DNA from: Candidatus Omnitrophota bacterium
GTDB lineage: Bacteria > Omnitrophota > Gorgyraeia > Duberdicusellales > 4484-171
Assembly: GCA_003154195.1 (NCBI GenBank)
Contig: PMCS01000018.1
Span: 44,773-108,772 of the forward strand
Reading direction: 5' to 3'
Length of the DNA stretch: 64,000 bases
Shown: positions 11,380 through 61,564 of the stretch, piece by piece
Layout: each line of letters starts with the position of its first letter
Numbering within the stretch: the stretch's first letter is position 1
Program-made: the position numbers and the translations under genes
The notes under the pieces: model-generated
What the model was told of the DNA's origin: nothing
Seen by the model: only the letters and a program-made list of their open reading frames with translations
The model's database searches: none

Positions 11380-11384
11380 AAATA

Positions 11385-11560
11385 CTTTACAGGTTAGGGC
11401 TAAGGTTAAGAAGCCGGTAACAAATCGGCTAAGGTTAAGGTTAGGATGACGGTTTGGGCTATGGTAATGGTTAGGGCTGATATGAATTTACAGCCTTAAC
11501 CCTAACCCTGACCTATACTGGCATCCTTACCTTTACCCTAACCAAGTTTTATTACCCTAC
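11385..11560. repeat. Long imperfect palindrome built from ggttaggg/taagg units
   Basis: ggttagggctaaggttaag ... ttagggctgatatgaatttacagccttaaccctaaccc ... ccttacctttaccctaacc. Confidence 0.55.
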
Positions 11561-13905: not shown

Positions 13906-14846
13906 ATAGTTATCTCCGGACGGGCGAAAAATCTTATTTTTGGCGCCGGCATCATGTCCATTCCCAGGCCTCGATTGACATAAAGAATCGTGCTGCCGAT
14001 ATGGTAGATCCCGGATTCGTATTTTTTTCCATATTTGGAAAGAGTGATTATCGCTCCGTAGAACGGCAAGCTGACCTGTCCTCCATGAGTATGGCCGCTG
14101 AGGTATAAATCGACGTTGTTCCTGGCGTATTCGATCAGGGCTGACGAATGATAAAGAAATATTTTAAAGTTTTTACCGGCGGAGTTTTGTAACATTGCCG
14201 GATTTATTTTTTGATAAGTGTAATTCATGCCGTAGAGGAAGATCGTTTCGCCGTTTTTTACTACGGCGGCGCGTTTATTGTTGAGTTCTTTGAAGCCGGA
14301 GTTTTTAAATAAATTTATTTTTGGCCAGTATCTTGCGTCTACATTACCGCGCACCGCGTATTTTATCCCGGCGTTTATGCGTTTAAGCGTATCCTGGAAA
14401 ACCGGCAAAGCCAGGCTGGTGTTAAGCGCATCGCCGGTAAAAACTACGATATCCGGTTTAAGTTTGTTAATGATGTCAGGGATGCGTTTTTCGTTTACGC
14501 TACCCCGGTCGCAGTGCAAGTCGGAGATCTGAGCGATGCGAAAGCTCGTCTTATTTAGTTTGGGAGTGGCGATTTCTATTATTTTTGTTTCCACCCAGTA
14601 GGGTTCGATAAAAAAACCGTAGGCAAGGCATAAAACGCTGGCAAGGGTCAGGGCGTGCAGGATAACGATAGGTTTAGCCGGTTTTTTCCGTGGTTTTTTG
14701 CGCAGCAAACTAACGAGAAATTTTATTAATAAGACTGATTCAGCAAAGTATAGCGCGGCCAGGAAAGCGAAGAGAATAATAAGGCCGGTTAATTCGCCGA
14801 AGCGTAATTCTTTGATAATTGATTTGAGGGATAGACTAGGCTCCAT
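13860..14846 (-). CDS. Membrane-anchored calcineurin-like metallophosphoesterase
   Basis: Two N-terminal TM helices; ISDLHCD, GDALN, GNVD, GHTHGGQ metallophosphatase motifs. Confidence 0.8.
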   Translation of the reverse strand: MEPSLSLKSIIKELRFGELTGLIILFAFLAALYFAESVLLIKFLVSLLRKKPRKKPAKPIVILHALTLASVLCLAYGFFIEPYWVETKIIEIATPKLNKTSFRIAQISDLHCDRGSVNEKRIPDIINKLKPDIVVFTGDALNTSLALPVFQDTLKRINAGIKYAVRGNVDARYWPKINLFKNSGFKELNNKRAAVVKNGETIFLYGMNYTYQKINPAMLQNSAGKNFKIFLYHSSALIEYARNNVDLYLSGHTHGGQVSLPFYGAIITLSKYGKKYESGIYHIGSTILYVNRGLGMDMMPAPKIRFFARPEITIFDIKPVSDKQVSDK

Positions 14847-16424
14847 TTAAAAGGGAATATTTCGGTTGGGCTCTTTTTTCTTAAGCGCGTACGTTTGTAC
14901 TTGGTCTTTTTCGCATATCCCGGCCGGCGCGAACTCATTTTTACTGCGTATTTTCTGGTAAGTGCTTTCCGAAATCAGTATTTCTCCGGGGTTGGCCATT
15001 TTCTGGAGATGTCCGGCGATGTCCAGCGCGGCGCTGAAGATTTCGCTGTTTTTCTGAGAGGTATCCGCCACAATTTTTCCCGTATTGATGCCCTGCCGGA
15101 CACGAAATCCCGATTTTAACGTATTGATCGATTTATTGAACCGGTCGATTTCTTTAAGTATTTCCTGGGCGGTTATTACCGCCTGGTCGGCGCTTTCGAA
15201 AATATAGATCGCGCCGTCTCCCGAGCGGGTCAAGATTTTTCCCCGGCGTCTCTGAATGGCGTCATCAACTATTTTCCAATACTTACGAAACGCCAGGAGT
15301 ACATTTTCCGCTTGTTCTTCCGATTTTAATTTAGCGCTGTCGGCGACGTCGATATCCAGCGCCGTTATCTCACGGACAAATTTTCGATTAATGTATTCTT
15401 GAAGTTTTTTCTGCATCTGAAGCGATTCTTCAAGGGTCAGCCCCTGGATCACGGCGATTTTTTCCCTGTCCGGCGGCGTCGGAGGGGTATCATCCGCGTT
15501 TTCCGATTCTCGCGGATTTTCCGTATCGTCCGCGGCGATTTTTCCGGCGGCGGCCCGCTTCGTTTCCCATATAACTAGCGCGATCAGCATGGCAATCGCG
15601 GCGCGCAGAGTGAAATCCGTCAGGCTAAAAGGAATTTTTTCCTGGTAAAGCGTCAGCACAATAAATTGCAATACGGTAATCATCGCGATGCCGATAACGG
15701 CGGCAAGTAAGTCGAGCGGCCATTTTTTTTTCGCGATTAAAAAGTGCAAGAGGGAGCTGGTTACTCCCCAGGCGACGACTTGCAGAAAGACCAGGGGCTG
15801 GTAGAGCATGAATTTTAACAGCTTAACCGCAGTGACCAGCGCGCCGCTCAGGTCGAAGGCTGAAAAAGCTTCTTTCAGCCAGGAAAGATTATAGAAAGGC
15901 GACTGGGGTTTAGAATTCAGGGCAATAAATTTATAGAGCGGTATCCCGATAACCAGGTTGCCCATAAGCTCTTGCTGTCCGATTATCCCCGCGATACAGC
16001 AGGCAAGGCAGGCGATGCTTGCTATAGTGCCGGCGGCCAATTGGGTTTCCGCCAACAGCGGCGCCAGAAAGATTATCAAAAATTCAATGGGCAAAGGCCG
16101 GCCAAAAATATTTAAAGCGGCCAGAAAAGGCGCGGCAACGATAAGCAGGAAGATTCTAGGGAAAGGCTGTGTTCTAACGGAAAATATTACCGCGATCACG
16201 GCGGCAAGCAGGTACAGGGTAAAAAGTTCCGGGGATTGATACAAAAGACTTATGCCGAAAACCGCCATCGCGGCGAAAATAGCGGTTTTGATAAACCAGT
16301 ATGCCGAAAGAGTTATCAGCAGAACAAAGGCCAACGTCCACCATTGAGGGAAATAGGGAAATACCCCGAGGGATAAATAGGTTAAAGCTCCGGCGGTTAA
16401 CGCCTGGAAAATTCTACCGAGCAT
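14847..16424 (-). CDS. Integral-membrane class III adenylate/guanylate cyclase
   Basis: About 8 TM helices then a cyclase homology domain (LDIDVADSAKL ... RSGDGAIYIFE ... RVRQGINTGKIV ... ISESTYQ). Confidence 0.7.
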   Translation of the reverse strand: MLGRIFQALTAGALTYLSLGVFPYFPQWWTLAFVLLITLSAYWFIKTAIFAAMAVFGISLLYQSPELFTLYLLAAVIAVIFSVRTQPFPRIFLLIVAAPFLAALNIFGRPLPIEFLIIFLAPLLAETQLAAGTIASIACLACCIAGIIGQQELMGNLVIGIPLYKFIALNSKPQSPFYNLSWLKEAFSAFDLSGALVTAVKLLKFMLYQPLVFLQVVAWGVTSSLLHFLIAKKKWPLDLLAAVIGIAMITVLQFIVLTLYQEKIPFSLTDFTLRAAIAMLIALVIWETKRAAAGKIAADDTENPRESENADDTPPTPPDREKIAVIQGLTLEESLQMQKKLQEYINRKFVREITALDIDVADSAKLKSEEQAENVLLAFRKYWKIVDDAIQRRRGKILTRSGDGAIYIFESADQAVITAQEILKEIDRFNKSINTLKSGFRVRQGINTGKIVADTSQKNSEIFSAALDIAGHLQKMANPGEILISESTYQKIRSKNEFAPAGICEKDQVQTYALKKKEPNRNIPF

Positions 16425-16464
16425 GTATTATATTTATATTAGAAATACAATGTTGTCAATAGGA

Positions 16465-16590
16465 AAATTTAAGGGGATCGGGGGGTCGGGGAATTGGGGT
16501 TTGGGAATCAGGATATTGGGTGATTGGGTAGTGCCTGATTCCCAGTTTCCCAGTCCCCAAATCCCGATGTCCTGATTTCCTGCTACCCTT
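16465..16590. repeat. Imperfect palindrome built from gggaat/ttgggg units
   Basis: ggggatcggggggtcggggaattggggtttgggaatcaggatattggg ... cccagtttcccagtccccaaatcccgatgtcctgatttcc. Confidence 0.55.
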
Positions 16591-16621
16591 ATTTATGCGC
16601 TTGTTTTTTCTTCGCTGCCGG

Positions 16622-19522: not shown

Positions 19523-19569
19523 TATGTATACTTTTTATATCGCTATAGCAATATAAAAAGTATACAAAC
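19523..19569. promoter_or_regulatory. Near-perfect 47-bp palindrome (candidate operator), copy 1
   Basis: tgtatactttttatatcgctatagcaatataaaaagtataca. The 30-bp core is repeated at 20661-20693. Confidence 0.5.
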
Positions 19570-19735: not shown

Positions 19736-20566
19736 TCACAATCTTATATTGCAGGTAGAAAACAGTTTTTGGGGGAGCCGGGCAATCAAGCGCTCTGCCT
19801 CTACGCGTTTTCGCCAGAGGCCGGAAAAGTCTTTGGGTAAAAACGGATCTTTTACCAATAATTGATTGAATTCATGAAACAATTCCCCGCCTTTGAGGTA
19901 GTACTCTTTAAAATTGACTTCGTTTGTTTCTATAATACGGGTGTAGTCATTACAGCTTTCTATTAGTTTGTCGTAACGGCTATCGAGATTTTGTAAATTC
20001 CATGCCCGGTCAGCAATCTCATCGATATTTTTTCCGGCAAAAAAATTACCTTCGTATATGCAAAGATATTTCAGTAATCCATATTCCCGGCATCGATGGT
20101 TGATTTGATGCGTATAGTCGTAGCAGGAAGCCCAGCAGCTGTCCTGAATCATCCCGAATCCCAGCGCCTGCAGGTTATGCCGTAACCACTCCCGGTGTTT
20201 TTTGCTTCGCTCGGGGATATCGTAAATAACGAGGCGCCATTTTTTATCCCATTTTTTTTGAAACTGTTGCGCTTTTATGTCTATGGCATCCGACAGAAAA
20301 CTGTATCGCCGGTCTTTATTAAAAGAAAACTGAAGTTTTTTTGCCTTAATTTTACGGATATAGCCTTTTCGGCATAACGATGCGGTTCTATTGTGTAATC
20401 TTTGCCGCGAATACAATTCGAATAATTGCGAACCGTGCAGGGCTTTCGGCCAAAAAGGCGGGGTGGAAAAAAAGAGGCAAAAATATAACATTTCCAAACT
20501 TTCTCTTAATAAAAAATCCGTCGCGTCGTTCATGCCGTATTTAACTCTGTTTAATGTTTTATTCAT
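19736..20566 (-). CDS. PaaX-like domain regulator (putative)
   Basis: WDKKWRLVIYDIPERSKKHREWLRHNLQALGFGMIQDSCWAS resembles the PaaX C-terminal domain WDGxWxLVxxxIPE..R..LR..L...GFG.L...VW. Confidence 0.45.
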   Translation of the reverse strand: MNKTLNRVKYGMNDATDFLLRESLEMLYFCLFFSTPPFWPKALHGSQLFELYSRQRLHNRTASLCRKGYIRKIKAKKLQFSFNKDRRYSFLSDAIDIKAQQFQKKWDKKWRLVIYDIPERSKKHREWLRHNLQALGFGMIQDSCWASCYDYTHQINHRCREYGLLKYLCIYEGNFFAGKNIDEIADRAWNLQNLDSRYDKLIESCNDYTRIIETNEVNFKEYYLKGGELFHEFNQLLVKDPFLPKDFSGLWRKRVEAERLIARLPQKLFSTCNIRL

Positions 20567-20654: not shown

Positions 20655-20698
20655 TAAAAATATTGCTATAGCAATATAAAAAGTATACAAAAATTAAG
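20655..20698. promoter_or_regulatory. Palindromic candidate operator, copy 2
   Basis: atattgctatagcaatataaaaagtatacaaaa, immediately upstream of the PaaX-like gene. Confidence 0.5.
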
Positions 20699-21324: not shown

Positions 21325-21445
21325 ATAAAATAAAAACCAAAAGATTTACCACCAAGGCACTAAGCCACAAAAAAGCGACATTAGATGAGGAAAGAATTAT
21401 TTTTTAATCTTAGTGTCTTGGTGTCTTTCTGGCAAAGTTTTTGGT

Positions 21446-23091: not shown

Positions 23092-24411
23092 TCAGTGATC
23101 CTCTGCGTTTTCTCTGATTCCCAAATCTGTTGGCGCCCTTCCCAGGGATTTTAGGAGCGAGACGGTCGTTTCTATTTGTGAAGATATGCTATCGCCGGAG
23201 TGCGCTTTATTGGGATAAATCTCGTAGTGCCGGCGGTACTTAAGCGGCGTAACATTAAGCATAACTGTATTGCCGCCGCTTAGCAACCCTTGCCGCATCC
23301 CGGAAGGATCAACCGTCTCCAGGGCCGTGGTTACGGCGATCTTCGCGTTGGCGGCGTCAACCAGCCGGGCTAAAGCCATGACTTTCAGGACATCCGTGGA
23401 TTGTCCCGGCGGGCATGCTGCCAGCGGCGTACCGGGATGTGGTAAGAACGGGCCGAAAGAATACATTTCCGGCCGCAGTTTTTTTGCCAGCTTGATATCG
23501 TCAAGAATATCGGCTACGGTTTGCCCGGGGATGCCGATTAAAGAACCGGTCATGATGATGTAGCCTAATTCGTAAGCCCGGCGGATATGAGCCAGGCGTG
23601 TGTCGAGTGCGCGCCCGGGATGAAGCTTGGCGTAAAGCTCAGGGTTGGAAGTCTCAAAGCGCATCAGCATTGCCCGGCTGCCGGCGTCATATAGTTCCTC
23701 CAATCCTTCCATGCCGAGTTCGCCGAAGCTTACGCAAATCAAAACTGCCGCCTTTTTCTTTATTCCTTTGATAATCCCGGATAATTGTTTTGCGGTGAAG
23801 CCGGGGTCTTCCCCGCTTTGTAAGACTAACGCCTGGAATCCGTATTCTTCGCAGGCTTCGACTGCCGCGGCGATGATTTCTTCCGGCGTCATGCGATAGC
23901 GGGTAATATTTTTATTGTGGCGGGATATGCCGCAATATTGGCAGGCGCTTGCGCAGTGATTGGATATTTCGATGATGCCGTGCACGCAGCAGGAATTTTT
24001 ATGGTACTTTTGGCGCAGGAAATTAGCTGTCTTGAAAAGTAATTCTATTTCCTGGGGGGCGGCGAGACGGAATAAATATTCAAGGTCGTCTTTTTTAAGG
24101 GTTAATCCTTCCATCGCCCGGTCTAAAATCGTGCCGGTTTTCTTATTAATATTTTTTTTATCGAGATCCAGCCGGGAAAGGCGCAGATCGGTGTCCTGAA
24201 GCTGGAAAAAAATCTCACGCCAGGCTTCGATGATCTCCCCCGCTTCTTTTTCCGGCACTTTTTTTATTATAAAACCGCCCTGGGCGCAGACATAATCGCC
24301 GATTTTCAAGTCGTAGAATTCGTTCCGGGCTTTTTTCTCTTCGCCGAAGTAGTCGACAACGACGGTTTTTTCGTTGATCGCTTTAATTTTTCCGGGTATC
24401 GCGTAGCACAT
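23092..24411 (-). CDS. HypC-like domain fused to HydE/BioB/PylB-family radical SAM enzyme
   Basis: N-terminal ~65 aa MCYAIPGKIKAINEKTVVVDYFGEE...GDYVCAQGGFII matches HypC/HupF (Met-Cys start). Followed by IEISNHCASACQYCGISRHNKNITRYRMTPEEI, a HydE-like CX3CX2C radical SAM core. Confidence 0.7.
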   Translation of the reverse strand: MCYAIPGKIKAINEKTVVVDYFGEEKKARNEFYDLKIGDYVCAQGGFIIKKVPEKEAGEIIEAWREIFFQLQDTDLRLSRLDLDKKNINKKTGTILDRAMEGLTLKKDDLEYLFRLAAPQEIELLFKTANFLRQKYHKNSCCVHGIIEISNHCASACQYCGISRHNKNITRYRMTPEEIIAAAVEACEEYGFQALVLQSGEDPGFTAKQLSGIIKGIKKKAAVLICVSFGELGMEGLEELYDAGSRAMLMRFETSNPELYAKLHPGRALDTRLAHIRRAYELGYIIMTGSLIGIPGQTVADILDDIKLAKKLRPEMYSFGPFLPHPGTPLAACPPGQSTDVLKVMALARLVDAANAKIAVTTALETVDPSGMRQGLLSGGNTVMLNVTPLKYRRHYEIYPNKAHSGDSISSQIETTVSLLKSLGRAPTDLGIRENAEDH

Positions 24412-25171
24412 TGTTTAAACCTCAAAAATAAAACCAAAAACTTACCACCAAGGCACTAAGATTTTTATCACCAAGACACCAAGAAGAAAAAACTTTCTAC
24501 TACCCGCTCGCTTTGTTCGCTGAAGGACACGAAGCTCACGAAAGAAAACAAAAAATAATTTTCAGCCACAGGTTAACACAGATGGACACAGATAAATATA
24601 AAAAAATGTTTCCCGCAAAGTTCGCGAAGAAAATAAAAATCTTTACCGCAGGCACAAAGGATACAAGAAAGCTTCAAGGTATTTCCCGCAAAGGCGCAAA
24701 GTGCGCAAAGAAAAACAAAACTAAAATTTCGCCTGATTGGGCGAGTTCACAGAGAAAAAATATATCTGCCCCGTTTTGCACTATTTTTATTAAACCAATT
24801 TTTTATTCTTTTTCTCTATTTTTAAAAAAATGTTTGTATCTTCCGATTCCACATATTCTGGAGATAGGCAACTTATTTTATCGCCTTTTCTTATTTGTGC
24901 AATTTGCGTGATTCGTTGTTAAAATTTTCCCCTAGTTTTCTTATTTTTTATTTATCTTTTCTTTTTCTTAATCTGCGTAATCTGTGGACAAAAAATTTTT
25001 GTTTTTATTTTTTCTTCGTGAGCTTCGTGCTCTTCAGCGAGTACTCAAGCGGGTGGTGAAAATTATTTTCCCAATTTTTTATCCTGTCCATCCGTGTTCA
25101 TCTGTGGCCAATAATTCTAGGTCTTATTTTTTTGTGTCTTTGTGCCTTCGTGGTAAATCTTTTGGTTCTGT
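24412..25171. repeat. Nested inverted-repeat element in a 760-bp non-coding gap
   Basis: Outer arms accaccaaggcactaag (24447-) and gtgccttcgtggtaaatcttttgg (25143-). Inner arms cccgctcgctttgttcgctgaaggacacgaagctcacgaa (24503-) and ttcgtgagcttcgtgctcttcagcgagtactcaagcgggtgg (25017-). Internal cacagat / atctgtggac motifs. Confidence 0.6.
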
Positions 25172-25414
25172 TTATTCTATATCAAACGAAACCACGTCCA
25201 CCCTCTCCGCCATGAAACAGGTAATCTCTAATTCCACCCCTTCCAGGATCGTGCCTTTAGCTAAAACGCTGAATGTTTCCCGAAACGAAGTTTCCTTTAT
25301 GCCGGTTAATTCACCGATTTTCAGGCGTATTTTGGTTACGCGCCGGCCGCCTTCCTGTTTCGCGTGTTCGACGATACCTTTGATTATCGGTTCGATGATG
25401 TGCGTTTCGTGCAT
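25172..25414 (-). CDS. hypA: HypA-like nickel metallochaperone N-terminal domain (no zinc-finger domain)
   Basis: Starts MHE (Ni-binding N-terminus). Aligns to HypA through ...RVTKIRLKIGELTGIKETSFRETFSVLAKGTILEGVELEI. Ends at 80 aa without CxxC...CxxC. Confidence 0.6.
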   Translation of the reverse strand: MHETHIIEPIIKGIVEHAKQEGGRRVTKIRLKIGELTGIKETSFRETFSVLAKGTILEGVELEITCFMAERVDVVSFDIE

Positions 25415-25504: not shown

Positions 25505-26011
25505 TTAGTGTTTTTGTGCCTTAGTGTCTTGGTGGTAAGTTTTTGGTTTTTCTTTAGTCGCTTCGATTATCAATCTTGAAACTTCACCGACGGCTTTTTT
25601 AACCGGCTCCGACAATTCTTCCCCGAAAGAAATATTTTCCGGCTGTATCGCCAACAGATATATATCGGCCTTGATCCGGCTTTGTAAATATTCGATAAAA
25701 AGTTTCGGCGAAATATTATGCGTGGTGAATCCCGAGTTGGCGATTTCCTCGTTTTTCAGGATCCGGTATTGCCCAGTCTCTAAACCCAAGTGCGCCGCGT
25801 CGATGAGTATTACCGTATCGGGTTTTTCTTTGATTATCTTGCCGCTGTGGTTTTCCGGGGCGCTTCCCGCGTCGATGCATACTGCGGCGGTATGATTTTT
25901 TAATCTTTCGATAATTGCCGGACCCAATCCATCGTCCGAGCGTAAAGTATTGCCTATCCCGACAAAAACAATTTTGCCCTTTAGTATATCCTGAAATATA
26001 TTTTTTGCCAT
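25505..26011 (-). CDS. [NiFe] hydrogenase maturation endopeptidase (HycI/HybD family)
   Basis: KIVFVGIGNTLRSDDGLGPAII ... DAG ... VILIDAAH, the typical protease family pattern. Confidence 0.8.
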   Translation of the reverse strand: MAKNIFQDILKGKIVFVGIGNTLRSDDGLGPAIIERLKNHTAAVCIDAGSAPENHSGKIIKEKPDTVILIDAAHLGLETGQYRILKNEEIANSGFTTHNISPKLFIEYLQSRIKADIYLLAIQPENISFGEELSEPVKKAVGEVSRLIIEATKEKPKTYHQDTKAQKH

Positions 26012-34544: not shown

Positions 34545-34660
34545 ATTATAGAATATTGTAGGGGCGGATCCGTGTATCCGCCCGTTACGATTTATTTTAT
34601 TATCATTGAATATTTTATTATTTTGTAACGGGCCGACACATAGGTCGGCCCCTACGATAT
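34545..34660. repeat. gtaggggc...gcccctac palindrome, copy 1
   Basis: tgtaggggcggatccgtgtatccgcccgttacgat...gtaacgggccgacacataggtcggcccctacgat. Confidence 0.6.
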
Positions 34661-35099: not shown

Positions 35100-35215
35100 G
35101 TACCAAAATTTATATTGTAGGGGCGGATTCGTGTATCCGCCCGCTAGGATCTATTTTATGATTATCGGATATTTTGTAACGGGTCGATACATGGATCGAC
35201 CCCTACAATCAAAAT
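35100..35215. repeat. gtaggggc...gcccctac palindrome, copy 2
   Basis: attgtaggggcggattcgtgtatccgcccgctaggat...gtaacgggtcgatacatggatcgacccctacaat. Confidence 0.6.
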
Positions 35216-35216
35216 A

Positions 35217-37874: not shown

Positions 37875-37995
37875 AACTTTTGTCCACAGATTTCACTGAT
37901 TTTCACAGAAACTATGGATCAAGGTAATGTTAAAAAGCGAAATTAAAAAATTAATCTGTAAAATCTGGGCAATCTGTGGACAGGGTTTATTGCTT
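37875..37995. repeat. Inverted-repeat element gtccacagattt...aatctgtggac inside the operon
   Basis: tgtccacagatttcactgattttcacagaa ... aatctgtaaaatctgggcaatctgtggacag. A second copy is at 43935-44080. Confidence 0.55.
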
Positions 37996-43233: not shown

Positions 43234-43720
43234 TCTTTAGCTCCCGTATTTTCATTAAAGCTTTAATGTCAATCTTGTCTCTTTCCCGGCCGGCTTTTTT
43301 CTTTAAAACAATTAAATCATTTATTGAGATAAGCGGTATTTTTATCTTGTCGGCGCAGACTTCTTGCCGCCGCTTATAGGCTTGATCGAAGTCAATATAT
43401 TTAACTACCATAATATCAATGTGTTCTATCGGATCGGCGGGATTGTAAAGCGAAAATACCTTCATGTGTTTTTCTTTTACCCACTTTTGCCTTTTGGCGA
43501 CATCGGCTAATTCTTCAATTTTAACAGGCACCCCGGGCTTTAAGCCCAAGGCTTTTGCCATTGTTATGAATTTATTCAGGTTGGTTTTATTAAAAAAAAG
43601 TATAATATCTAAATCGCCGGTTGCTCGATAAAATCCATGAAGGTTTACCGCAACCCCGCCGATAACGAGATATTTAATTTTTTTATTTGCCAATTCTCTG
43701 AATATCCGCTCAAAAATCAT
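43199..43720 (-). CDS. Nucleotidyltransferase-fold protein (putative toxin-antitoxin/abortive-infection-type NTase)
   Basis: KYLVIGGVAVNLHGFYRATGDLDIIL, the minimal NTase motif (G-x-a-x(n)-h-G-x(n)-D-h-D). Confidence 0.5.
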   Translation of the reverse strand: MIFERIFRELANKKIKYLVIGGVAVNLHGFYRATGDLDIILFFNKTNLNKFITMAKALGLKPGVPVKIEELADVAKRQKWVKEKHMKVFSLYNPADPIEHIDIMVVKYIDFDQAYKRRQEVCADKIKIPLISINDLIVLKKKAGRERDKIDIKALMKIRELKNESEKERKKRR

Positions 43721-43734
43721 ATTTATATTTTACC

Positions 43735-44143
43735 ACGAATGACACCGTGTTTCACGAAGAAAAATTGAACCTAAAAGTGTAGGGAAAAATTGGGCGCAGA
43801 TTTGTTGGATCGGCGAAGGTAAAACTAAAAAATTTCACCACCCGCTCGCCTTGCTCGCTCGAGAACACCGAGCGCACAGAGAAAATACTTTTATTCAGCC
43901 ACCGACTGTTATGGATAAAACTGGTTCTAAAAGATAATATAGTCCACAGATTTCTCAGATTACTCTGATTAAAAGAATAAGACGATTAAAAAATAAAAAA
44001 TTTGATGTTCATGTTTTAAAATATTCTAAATAAATTTTTTTCTTATAATCTGTAAAATCTGAGCAATCTGTGGACAAAAGTAGTTTGATTTATTTCTGTT
44101 GTGATTTTTGGTCTGTAGCCTGCGGTCTGACGCCTGAAGTCTA
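43735..44143. repeat. Repeat-dense non-coding gap with copies of the cacccgctcgc and gtccacagat/atctgtggac elements
   Basis: ttcaccacccgctcgccttgctcgctcgagaacaccgagcgcacag...ttcagccaccgactg...tagtccacagatttctcagatt...aatctgtaaaatctgagcaatctgtggacaaaag. Matches 24503-24600 and 37875-37995. Confidence 0.6.
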
Positions 44144-44923
44144 CTAGTAGGGTTTTTTTGGTTTCTTAAAAAAATTATAAATCCCGCTCAGCTTTACCCA
44201 TAAACTGACACCCCGGTCGTCATTGGTTATTTTAATCCTCCGGAGGGCAAAGCGGTCGATATTTTCCGAGAATCCGCGGTTGGTGGTACAGGCGCATAGG
44301 TAATCGGCGCTCCTCACTTCCTTCAGCGTATGTTCGTTAAAACCGCCCACAGGATAGGAGATAGTTTCAACAGGCGTTTTGAATAGTTCCTCCAGGCTTT
44401 TTTTGGAATCGAAAATTTCCCGGCGCAGGATAGTGCTGTTTAAATCAGGTAAATACGCGTGCGTCAGGGTATGGGAGCCGACGGTTACTTTCGTATTTTT
44501 CAGGAGCCAATTAATGTTGTTTTTGGTTAAGTAATTGGGAGAGCCGATTTCGTCGACCACTACAAATATTGTAGCGGGATAATCGAATTTTTTTAAAATC
44601 TCTATGGCTTTTAGGTTATCGCGGTAACCGTCGTCGAAGGTTATAATCGCGATATTTTTCGGTATCGGTTTTTTGTCTTTGAGCATCCGGCAGTAATCGT
44701 CGAGGGGTATAACTTTGTAATTTTTATCTTTCAGGAACTTCATTTGTTTATAAAATACCTGCGGTTTTACCGCGGCGTAATTGGTTACCATATTTTCATC
44801 CAGCGAATGATACATTAATATGGGAGGAGCATATGTCGAGTGCAGGTGAAAATAAAAATAACCAAACCAGACGACGAAAAGTATTAACGCTGATTTTATA
44901 AAGTTTTTTATAATTTTTTTCAT
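44144..44923 (-). CDS. Polysaccharide deacetylase (NodB homology domain), membrane-anchored
   Basis: TM anchor; ITFDDGYRDN; HTLTH. Confidence 0.8.
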   Translation of the reverse strand: MKKIIKNFIKSALILFVVWFGYFYFHLHSTYAPPILMYHSLDENMVTNYAAVKPQVFYKQMKFLKDKNYKVIPLDDYCRMLKDKKPIPKNIAIITFDDGYRDNLKAIEILKKFDYPATIFVVVDEIGSPNYLTKNNINWLLKNTKVTVGSHTLTHAYLPDLNSTILRREIFDSKKSLEELFKTPVETISYPVGGFNEHTLKEVRSADYLCACTTNRGFSENIDRFALRRIKITNDDRGVSLWVKLSGIYNFFKKPKKPY

Positions 44924-46071: not shown

Positions 46072-46074
46072 TAG

Positions 46075-46215
46075 TTCTTCATAAATAAGGCTATCGGGAT
46101 ATCGGGGTATCAGGATTTGGATATTAGGGGACTGGGATATTAGGTATTTCCTAATACCCTAATCGCCTAATTCCCAAATCCTAATTTCCCGATTTACCAA
46201 TCCCCTTCTTTTAGA
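46075..46215. repeat. Imperfect palindrome built from gggatattagg/cctaat units
   Basis: ggatattaggggactgggatattaggtatttcctaataccctaatcgcctaattcccaaatcc. Confidence 0.55.
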
Positions 46216-46217
46216 GC

Positions 46218-48299: not shown

Positions 48300-48448
48300 T
48301 CCTCTTTGATGATTTTGAATGTCGGTAAAGGTTATGGTAACGATGCCAGTATGGGTTATGGCTACGGTTAAGGCTGCAAATTCGTATTAGCCTTAACCAT
48401 TACCTTTACCTAAACGGGCTTCGTAACCTTAGCCTTAACCTAGCAGTA
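48300..48448. repeat. ~100-bp ggttatgg/ggttaagg palindromic repeat, copy A
   Basis: atgccagtatgggttatggctacggttaaggctgcaaattcgtattagccttaaccattacctttacctaaacgggcttcgtaaccttagcc is near-identical to 50320-50420. Confidence 0.65.
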
Positions 48449-50269: not shown

Positions 50270-50470
50270 TTAGGGCAAAGGCAATGATGCCGTTAAAACT
50301 TGGCTAGGGCAAAGGTAATGATGCCAGTATGGGTTATGGCTACGGTTAAGGCTGCAAATTCGTATTAGCCTTAACCATTACCTTTACCTAAACGGGCTTC
50401 GTAACCTTAGCCCTAGCCGGTTTTTTACCGGCATCCTAACCCTGGCCATAGCCCGGTATTTATCATACCG
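50270..50470. repeat. ~100-bp ggttatgg/ggttaagg palindromic repeat, copy B (plus partial extra units)
   Basis: See copy A; includes the flanking ggcaaaggcaatgatgcc units. Confidence 0.65.
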
Positions 50471-52829: not shown

Positions 52830-52936
52830 TGAATAATTATAATTTTAGAACATCAATCTACGCCTGCCTTGGTGAAAACTTTCTTTGCCTCTATTTTTTC
52901 TTTGCGTACTTTGCGCCTTTGCGGGAAAGGTTTCCT

Positions 52937-58109: not shown

Positions 58110-58124
58110 GAATTTTATATTTTG

Positions 58125-58270
58125 TCAAAATGCTGCCGTAGGGGCGAGGTAATAAAATTTGGTTTGCCGCAAAGCGGCAAAGCTTAATTTTATTACCTCG
58201 CCCTCTAATCTATGATTGATTTTGCAATTATTTTTTAGAGGGCCGGGCATGCCCGGCCCCTACAGGATTG
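58125..58270. repeat. gtaggggc...gcccctac palindrome, copy 3 (longer)
   Basis: gctgccgtaggggcgaggtaataaaatt...aattttattacctcgccctctaatc...agagggccgggcatgcccggcccctacagg. Confidence 0.55.
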
Positions 58271-58271
58271 T

Positions 58272-61401: not shown

Positions 61402-61564
61402 ATATGACTCCTATTCGTTCTAAGATGTCAGCTTCTTTAATGTTTTTTAGGCCACTGATTGACACGGATAAAGCACAGATTTCAATAACGAAAAATGTTA
61501 TATTTTTAATCCGTGTTCAATCCGTGTCCATCTGTGGCTAAAAATCTGGAAAATTTGTTGTGTT

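Follow-up and report, generated by a model that had tools for sequence, protein, structure and literature searches.

The hypA-like gene and the HypC/radical-SAM (HydE-like) fusion gene, hypC-hydE, of an Omnitrophota population from Stordalen Mire are separated by 760 bp of DNA (24412-25171 of the 64,000-nucleotide stretch that we analyzed, contig PMCS01000018.1, hereafter the window). We found that in this gap a composite arm, ~170-200 nt long, is present twice in inverted orientation and that its two copies enclose a 367-nt interior. It is selfish-looking repeat DNA, neither a gene nor a known RNA. We read it as a nonautonomous repeat block inserted at the hypA/hypC-hydE junction and similar in kind to a miniature inverted-repeat transposable element (MITE) or to a cluster of REPINs, the hairpin-forming doublets of repetitive extragenic palindromes (REPs). 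We give this reading a probability of about 0.6. We regard the block as a single case of an invasion of intergenic sites throughout the genome, judging from the folding of the window's intergenic gaps, 25 of 40 of which reach z < -3 compared with 0 of 14 coding controls. A first-pass annotation had proposed either a small nonautonomous inverted-repeat element, dropped into a preexisting accaccaag hairpin, or a structured noncoding RNA (ncRNA) locus. The kind of element that it named has held up, the DNA being noncoding, multicopy, and lineage-specific; the manner of insertion and the ncRNA locus have not.

Results

The gap is a string of modules, each consisting of two or three tandem units of 8-10 nt (Tandem Repeats Finder, TRF), with a CCAC-type head (CCAC/GTGG) outside and an A-run (A/T) tail inside. 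Modules a, a2, c, d, e, f, g, and h make up the left half in one orientation, and modules x, y, c, d, and a make up the right half in the opposite orientation. The repeat block measures 751 bp (24418-25168), and the inverted composite arms (24425-24597 and 24965-25167) give it the terminal inverted repeats of a MITE. On the left, all on the plus strand, module a (AAAACCAAAAACTTACCACCAAGGCACTAAGA; 24425-24461) forms the outer arm, is matched by a hidden Markov model (HMM) of the a arm (24430-24465, E = 5.4e-8), and pairs with 25137-25167 (81%). It is followed by a2 (TTATCACCAAGACACCAAGAAG; 24463-24487), a shorter a-type arm recovered by the repeat search, TRF (period 8), and the a-family pattern; by c (TTTCTACTACCCGCTCGCTTTGTTCGCTGAAGGACACGAAGCTCACGAAAG...; 24494-24556), which matches its pattern and an HMM built from foreign copies only (24494-24547, E = 2.3e-13); and by d (AGCCACAGGTTAACACAGATGGACACAGATAAAT; 24564-24597), which aligns with the y modules of other halves and has its best partner at 25078-25111 (score 37). 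On the right, all on the minus strand and from the outside in, are the outer arm a (25125-25167; a HMM 25128-25168, E = 5.9e-9); an extra d between a and c (TTTATCCTGTCCATCCGTGTTCATCTGTGGCCAA; 25078-25111), recognized by TRF (period 10), pairing, and half-element alignment; c (25004-25065; foreign-only HMM 25011-25063, E = 5.7e-11), which pairs with the left c (score 53); and y (TTCTTAATCTGCGTAATCTGTGGACAAAA; 24965-24993), with 5 copies versus 0.1 expected. The interior (24598-24964) holds four solitary arms of the left type, built of tandem 8-9-nt units (e at 24609-24636, f at 24644-24673, g at 24682-24715, h at 24729-24762), then a 28%-GC core (24763-24892) and a weak right-type arm x (24893-24925).

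A repeat search recovered the outer ACCACCAAG arms at 24431-24461 and 25137-25167 (31 nt, 81% complementary), and the 675 nt between them agree with the earlier observation that arms of the accaccaag type lie far apart here. Imperfect inner inverted repeats of ~40 bp, also described before, were recovered at 24517-24558 and 24999-25040 (42 nt, 83% complementary) and could be extended to 24494-24556 and 25004-25065; CACAGAT-type arms were detected at 24577-24606 and 25077-25106. Two details of the first-pass annotation had to be corrected. The motif ccatccgtgttcatctgtggcc lies at 25088-25109, outside the right inner arm and not within it, and aatctgtggacaaaa, which it took for a right-end motif, does not terminate the inner repeat but forms a module of its own within that repeat. 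The best sequence partners of the modules are a with a (score 40), c with c (53), and d with d (37), and by pairwise sequence the c and d pairs cross instead of nesting. This crossing vanishes once five half-elements are aligned (see below): the left d then sits at the y position, and the left a2 and right d are variable extra modules.

For the entire gap, the predicted folding energy is -227.4 kcal/mol on the minus strand (z = -11.45) and -203.9 kcal/mol on the plus strand (z = -9.21), and none of 20 dinucleotide shuffles, against which these z-scores were computed, folded as well (0/20). The AT-rich core noted earlier between the arms is present, but the 367-nt, AT-rich interior on its own is not significantly structured (z = -1.07), and the composite arms account for all excess folding. 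Taken one by one, the modules are no palindromes and do not outdo shuffled sequence in folding (z between -2.4 and +1.0).

The modules recur elsewhere in this genome. Our search for internal copies covered ~80 kb (the 64-kb window plus ~15 kb); one contig, L132, covers 8 kb beyond the window start. The ACCACCAAG family gave 11 pattern matches in the window versus 0.73 expected, and the a-arm HMM found 11 copies in the window and further ones in the 8-kb extension. It found no match in ~1 Mb of foreign metagenome loci, and the a family is therefore lineage-specific. The closest copy of the left a lies on the opposite strand at 25520-25550 (97% over 31 nt), and the right a is 92.5% identical to 21335-21374 over 40 nt. 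The left-end c sequence, previously seen to recur near 43838-43890, indeed does so at 43833-43886 (nhmmer E = 2.8e-12; 3 pattern matches in the window versus 0.00 expected), and the extension holds one more c module (E = 1e-15). Recurrences of the right-end motif at 37969-37990 and 44060-44085 were likewise confirmed: AATCTGTGGACA is found again at 37971 and 44065 and, on the minus strand, at 37881 and 43941 (5 matches versus 0.10 expected). Module y with its spacer (24970-25013) is 91% identical over 44 nt to L132 14593-14636. A solitary g-type arm (52895-52928, minus strand) lies downstream of a XerC/D-like gene, 28 kb from g and on the opposite strand, at 97% identity over 34 nt. The genes that adjoin these modules are unrelated and include lipopolysaccharide (LPS) synthesis genes, xerC, topA, and others.

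We aligned five half-elements: the left half of the gap, the reverse complement of its right half, a solitary left-oriented half-element with modules a, c, d, and y in another gap (43722-43980, plus strand; c HMM E = 2.8e-12), L132 16360-16505, and L132 14455-14650. All five have the same order, namely a, a variable extra module, c, an A-rich spacer, and a y/d-type module. In the stretch from c to y (~96 nt), identity among both gap halves and L132 16360-16505 is 73-79%, with few gaps; 43722-43980, into which 40 nt are inserted, reaches 64-75%, and L132 14455-14650, whose middle module is only c-like, reaches 59-68%. The recurrence of the a, c, y/d order in three further solitary half-elements indicates that the modules travel as one composite arm. 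Copying of whole hairpins in this genome is indicated by a complete 105-bp hairpin of another, TTAGGG-like family that is present twice, 2 kb apart (48336-48440 and 50314-50418), with different outer arms; its 97.1% identity points to a recent copy event. What recurs in the ~80 kb is the arm modules only, and in the ~1 Mb of foreign loci only c; a full-length consensus of the kind that unites a MITE family is absent from both.

In relatives with the same gene order, the block is missing. Two related loci, L011 and L012, have HypC-HydE proteins that are 68% and 66% identical to that of the window and carry the genes in the order Mrp-like subunits, ferredoxin, hycI, hypA, hypC-hydE. L011 has 3 bp between hypA and hypC-hydE and L012 has 2 bp, hycI overlaps hypA, and the predicted Shine-Dalgarno sequence of hypC-hydE lies inside the 3' end of hypA. 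Given these 2-3-bp junctions, the whole block is a lineage-specific gain. HypA has its full length of 80-81 aa in the window, L011, and L012, and the insert thus did not truncate it. The flanking genes, both on the minus strand, are those named at first: hypA-like (25172-25414, 80 aa) and hypC-hydE-like (23092-24411, ATG at 24411). A 6-bp direct repeat, TGTTTA, brackets the block. One copy (24412-24417; TAAACA in gene orientation) lies directly upstream of the hypC-hydE ATG, and the other (25169-25174) includes the hypA stop codon (25172-25174). Removal of one TGTTTA and the 751 bp leaves GAA-TAA-ACA-ATG at the junction, comparable to TAA-ATA-ATG and TAA-CA-ATG in the relatives; the reconstructed empty site between hypA and hypC-hydE is GAATAAACAATG. 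The TGTTTA pair looks like a target-site duplication (TSD) and is suggestive of one, although its statistics are weak, with a chance of 17% in a generic test and of 0.4% in a position-specific test that was defined post hoc. TSD-like flanks had been named as a mark to look for; they exist in this form around the whole block but not at the ends of the c pair, where we found none in the gap and none at 15 foreign convergent pairs.

The junction is not alone in having grown. Six junctions of the conserved hydrogenase/maturation cluster hold 90-760 bp of hairpin DNA in the window, and the same six measure ≤17 bp in L012 and ≤103 bp in L011; the junctions neighboring the gap gained 90-160 bp. HycI takes its final 13-14 residues (KPKTYHQDTKAQKH) and its stop codon from an a-type arm (25505-25552), and the HycI of the relatives ends earlier.

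The gap is not an assembly artifact, since it is spanned at an unchanged length of 760 bp, with a single SNP, in six independent assemblies that differ in sample and assembler. Apart from a hypA deletion in L001 (see below), the assemblies otherwise differ by substitutions and short indels, for the most part next to scaffolding Ns or at locus ends, and no such difference lies in a repeat. A chimeric join through repeats is for this reason scarcely credible, even though the repeat does disturb assembly, as assemblies L004, L008, and L010 stop inside the left outer arm a. The identical HypC-HydE protein occurs on 14 contigs, including WOOD18 scaffolds, three Joint Genome Institute (JGI) assemblies, and the NCBI metagenome-assembled genome (MAG) GCA_003154645.1. 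Its named homologs are nearly all from Omnitrophica/Omnitrophota, the closest at 66-68% identity.

We found no coding capacity in the gap. Pfam matched none of three open reading frames (ORFs) in it, and the longest ORF, of 132 aa, matches only itself among 5.8 billion proteins; at 751 bp, the block is thus small and noncoding in the manner of a MITE. The 109-132-aa ORFs that several assemblies call in the gap are spurious and serve as a warning for the annotation of such gaps. Rfam gave no match at gathering score across the whole window. With E up to 10, the best match to the gap was RsmY at 13.5 bits versus a gathering score of 57, and the gap and its sister gap (43700-44160) together returned only generic long-hairpin noise resembling plant miRNA precursors. 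The earlier suggestion of a structured ncRNA locus finds no support in these searches, and because the sequence is absent from relatives, it has no conservation or covariation to show. Promoter-like sites (1 versus 1.9 expected) and terminator-like sites (2 versus 1.0 expected) in the gap did not exceed those in shuffles. The sole recombinase in the window is a XerC/D-like gene in the dprA-topA neighborhood.

Of all parts of the gap, c alone is common to foreign loci. This 55-nt module has 204 matches in ~1 Mb of foreign loci, among the matches listed, and in the window an HMM built from foreign copies only picks out the three c arms and nothing else (E = 2e-13 to 6e-11). Its conserved boxes are (A/C)CCACCCGYTC and TCRCTGAAGRACACGAAG. 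A relaxed c pattern hits at least 115 metagenome stretches, most of those listed coming from metagenome Ga0180007. The strict pattern hits a single contig among 185,579 GTDB representative genomes, in an unrelated MAG labeled Proteobacteria; the genome from which the window derives is therefore either not among the representatives or without c arms there. We found no blastn match to the c consensus in plasmid records and no match to the c pattern in IMG/VR viral contigs. The carriers are distant, with proteins common to the window and foreign c-bearing contigs being 31-45% identical, and a YcaO homolog search on one foreign carrier was uninformative for its taxonomy. Each c arm of the window is 80-86% identical to some foreign arm compared with 76% to its own partner in the gap, and the similarity of the gap's two c arms (0.76) does not exceed the background among random family members (0.77). 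Among the matches listed, the 204 foreign arms form convergent pairs in 20 cases, divergent pairs in 12, and same-strand neighbors in 30, with 164 arms outside convergent pairs. They are mostly extragenic, with a 50:23 bias to the antisense of codirectional flanking genes.

Additional Observations

Upstream of the gap lie a group-4-type membrane hydrogenase/Mrp cluster and hycI, and downstream lies a HydG-like radical SAM gene; the minus strand carries every long ORF of the 64 kb. HypA has only 80 aa and matches positions 1-66 of the 112 in its Pfam model, with the zinc finger missing, a form kept by the relatives, and HypC-HydE-like radical SAM fusions are present across Omnitrophota. Assembly L001 (sample SAMN07125062) lacks 118 bp inside hypA (window 25268-25385), which could reflect a true deletion in that sample or a fault in the assembly.

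Examples of the window's hairpin gaps are 11380-11556, 16425-16621, 46072-46217, and 58110-58271. The arms of gap hairpins consist of tandem 7-10-nt units that differ by family (TTAGGG-like, GGGGATC-like, TCAGATAA, and TAACGAT), a common hairpin design despite unrelated unit sequences. Canonical GTAG-tagged REP doublets (GTAGGGGCGGAT...ATCCGCCC plus an inverted partner) lie at 34555-34660, 35115-35216, and 58125-58271, and they suggest that a REP-associated tyrosine transposase (RAYT) may exist elsewhere in the genome.

The two half-elements on L132, one of the right type (14455-14650) and one of the left type (16360-16505), occupy the gaps flanking a two-gene block 6-8 kb beyond the window start. 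This layout resembles a composite transposon and may be a coincidence; the two genes (286 and 200 aa) have no family match and no transposase domain. In the foreign loci L014, L028, L059, L071, and L093, c arms enclose nested inverted layers (GCCTCCGGCGGCC..., CCAGATTTTAAAAATCTGG) with hypervariable interiors and also stand head-to-head with CTTCGTG-unit arms. A near-perfect ~40-bp palindrome (GTATAC...TTGCTATAGCAA...GTATAC) at ~19526-19568 and ~20655-20695 flanks a PaaX-like regulator gene (19736-20566) and looks like an operator.

Two candidates were tried and rejected. Heads of y/d-type modules, TTGTCCACA and TTAGCCACA (24979-24992, 37878-37892, 61525-61540), resemble DnaA boxes, but the window has neither a gene-strand switch nor a skew turn that would mark a replication origin. 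The alignment score of the c arm with a 38-bp Tn3-type inverted repeat was reached by 605-1061 of 2000 shuffles.

Discussion

The structure of the gap, the recurrence of its arms, and the compact junctions of the relatives are what a nonautonomous repeat block would leave behind. From them, we infer a block that entered a 2-3-bp junction of a compact hydrogenase/maturation operon and was copied by machinery supplied in trans. Translational coupling between hypA and hypC-hydE would have been lost with its arrival, and the predicted ribosome-binding site of hypC-hydE would now be a GAGG inside the insert (GAGGTT; 24418-24423, minus strand), 8 nt before the ATG. A read-through transcript would fold into a long imperfect hairpin with ~200 bp per arm, and such a hairpin would be a natural site for RNase III or for attenuation.

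Several results weigh against this account. A second full-length copy, with both arms and the interior, is absent from the ~80 kb, and no window ORF has a transposase or RAYT domain. The composite arms are only ~73% alike, so that a slow build-up or an origin in situ is conceivable. With relatives only 66-68% identical in HypC-HydE, the gain is neither datable nor provably one event, and the six assemblies show no presence/absence polymorphism of the block. As for the TGTTTA pair, a repeat of 6 nt or longer turns up in 17% of random pairs of 26-nt intergenic windows, and four other a-type hairpins have no TSD.

Set beside known systems, the block resembles several and matches none. Bacterial MITEs such as the Correia element of Neisseria and ERIC are noncoding, carry terminal inverted repeats, and lie between or at the ends of genes; they can add residues to ORFs, supply expression signals, and form long RNA hairpins. 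The block is like them in being noncoding and in its terminal inverted repeats and intergenic site; an arm of its repeat family adds residues to an ORF, and the block would likewise supply an expression signal and form a long RNA hairpin. The members of a MITE family also conform to one homogeneous consensus over their full length, with a TSD that is defined and, as a rule, a parent insertion sequence that has the same ends, whereas in the block only the arms repeat around a unique interior, a TSD is seen once and is statistically insecure, and neither a parent element nor a transposase among the window ORFs turned up. The pneumococcal BOX element, with boxA, boxB repeated n times, and boxC, is modular, intergenic, and predicted to form a stable RNA structure. 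The block shares this modularity, the variable number of internal units, the intergenic site, and the predicted stable RNA; it differs in having no sequence similarity to BOX and in forming an inverted pair around a unique core rather than a single linear string of modules. Work by Elhai and colleagues from 2008 is said to describe cyanobacterial arrays of short tandemly repeated repetitive (STRR) heptamers and very small elements nested in other repeats.

Intergenic TAACTGA heptamer repeats occur with the same unit in distantly related lineages and with no known vector, according to PMC4679880. Like these arrays, the gap has intergenic short tandem units of 7-10 nt and a unit common to distant lineages. 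The arrays are mostly direct repeats of one heptamer (169 of 170 repeat sets in 'Maribeggiatoa'), whereas the units of the gap differ per module, number only 2-3, and are set in long inverted composite arms. The REPINs and bacterial interspersed mosaic elements (BIMEs) of enterobacteria are, as PMC3116915 (and Gilson et al. 1991 cited therein) describes them, short extragenic inverted doublets that form hairpins in single-stranded DNA or mRNA, with solitary units as well, and the modules of the gap likewise occur as hairpin-forming inverted extragenic doublets and as singlets. The same source describes several families per genome, a mosaic architecture, and disordered clusters >700 bp that form by insertion into or next to REPINs (Bertels and Rainey 2011), features with which the block also agrees. 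In contrast to REP units, which are 20-60-bp imperfect palindromes tagged terminally with GTAG or CGTC (PMC3733652), the modules of the gap are not palindromes, and none of their heads (TTACCAC, CACCACCCG, GTCCACAG, TTTCCCGC) is GTAG or CGTC. They are built of tandem 8-10-nt units, three types of module combine in a fixed way to make up their arm, and no RAYT was found among the window ORFs. The window's own GTAG doublets at 34555-34660 and 35115-35216 look quite different. The repeat family appears to be undescribed, as far as targeted literature searches show; these found no link between Omnitrophota and MITEs, REPs, or intergenic hairpins.

The mode of insertion favored by the first-pass annotation, which we consider unlikely, is that an independent ~560-bp MITE (24503-25060), with c arms for its terminal inverted repeats, landed by transposition in the loop of a preexisting ACCACCAAG hairpin, the nesting reflecting successive insertions. 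Other a-type hairpins have loops of only ~14-45 nt, and here 663 nt lie between the arms; foreign genomes hold 20 convergent c pairs, 140-1062 bp apart, among the matches listed; and insertion of one REPIN into another is documented in PMC3116915. It is difficult to see, however, how independent arrivals would repeatedly have produced the a, c, y order of the solitary half-elements. The arms are composite, the c ends lack a TSD both in the gap and at 15 foreign convergent pairs, and 164 of the 204 foreign c arms among the matches listed stand outside such pairs. Moreover, partner c arms are no closer to each other than random ones (0.73 versus 0.77), and the sequence between them is common to no other locus. 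Still less probable is an origin in place without mobility, whereby slippage made the tandem units, template switching or inverted duplication made the palindrome, and mutational bias or gene conversion made the similarity elsewhere. It would suit the short tandem units, whose copy number varies between copies (e.g., 2 versus 3), the many window hairpins of the same design with unrelated unit sequences, and the lack of a transposase among the window ORFs. It does not account for dispersed copies that are 91-97% identical over 31-44 nt, and in one case over 105 nt, or for a 55-nt c module recognizable in distant organisms. Each arm of the gap is closer to a copy elsewhere than to its own partner, which argues against a recent local inverted duplication.

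About as improbable as an origin in place is a host-selected RNA element, either a hairpin in cis for processing, attenuation, or stabilization or an ncRNA gene, that regulates the hydrogenase maturation genes. The extreme predicted folding (z of -11.45 and -9.21) would fit such a role, as would the intercistronic position in an operon that may have to express its genes at unequal levels, and the 50:23 orientation bias of the foreign c arms, among the matches listed, hints at a strand-specific effect. Yet the relatives run the same operon with junctions of 3 bp (L011) and 2 bp (L012), no Rfam family matches even with E up to 10, and the same modules sit beside unrelated genes (LPS synthesis, xerC, topA). 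The interior is unstructured, and the gap has no convincing promoter (1 versus 1.9 expected) or terminator (2 versus 1.0 expected). We therefore prefer the nonautonomous repeat block inserted at the hypA/hypC-hydE junction.

A broader proposal, which we advance tentatively and hold to be doubtful, is that the modules are members of a superfamily of intergenic repeats, as yet undescribed, that is defined by a CCAC/GTGG-type head, 2-3 tandem 8-10-nt units, and an A/T tail. At least one member, c, is common to distant organisms, and the modules would be copied as composite arms by a trans-acting system that, in this Omnitrophota lineage, would have inflated most junctions of formerly compact operons, such as the six of the hydrogenase/maturation cluster. 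If this were true, a new layer of intercistronic RNA processing might arise. The locus illustrates how repeat DNA can pull apart an operon that in related Omnitrophota is tightly packed and translationally coupled. The repeat family responsible is modular, breaks short-read assemblies, and adds residues to at least one protein (HycI). The occurrence of the c module in distant organisms raises the question of which machinery spreads or conserves a 55-nt noncoding sequence so far.

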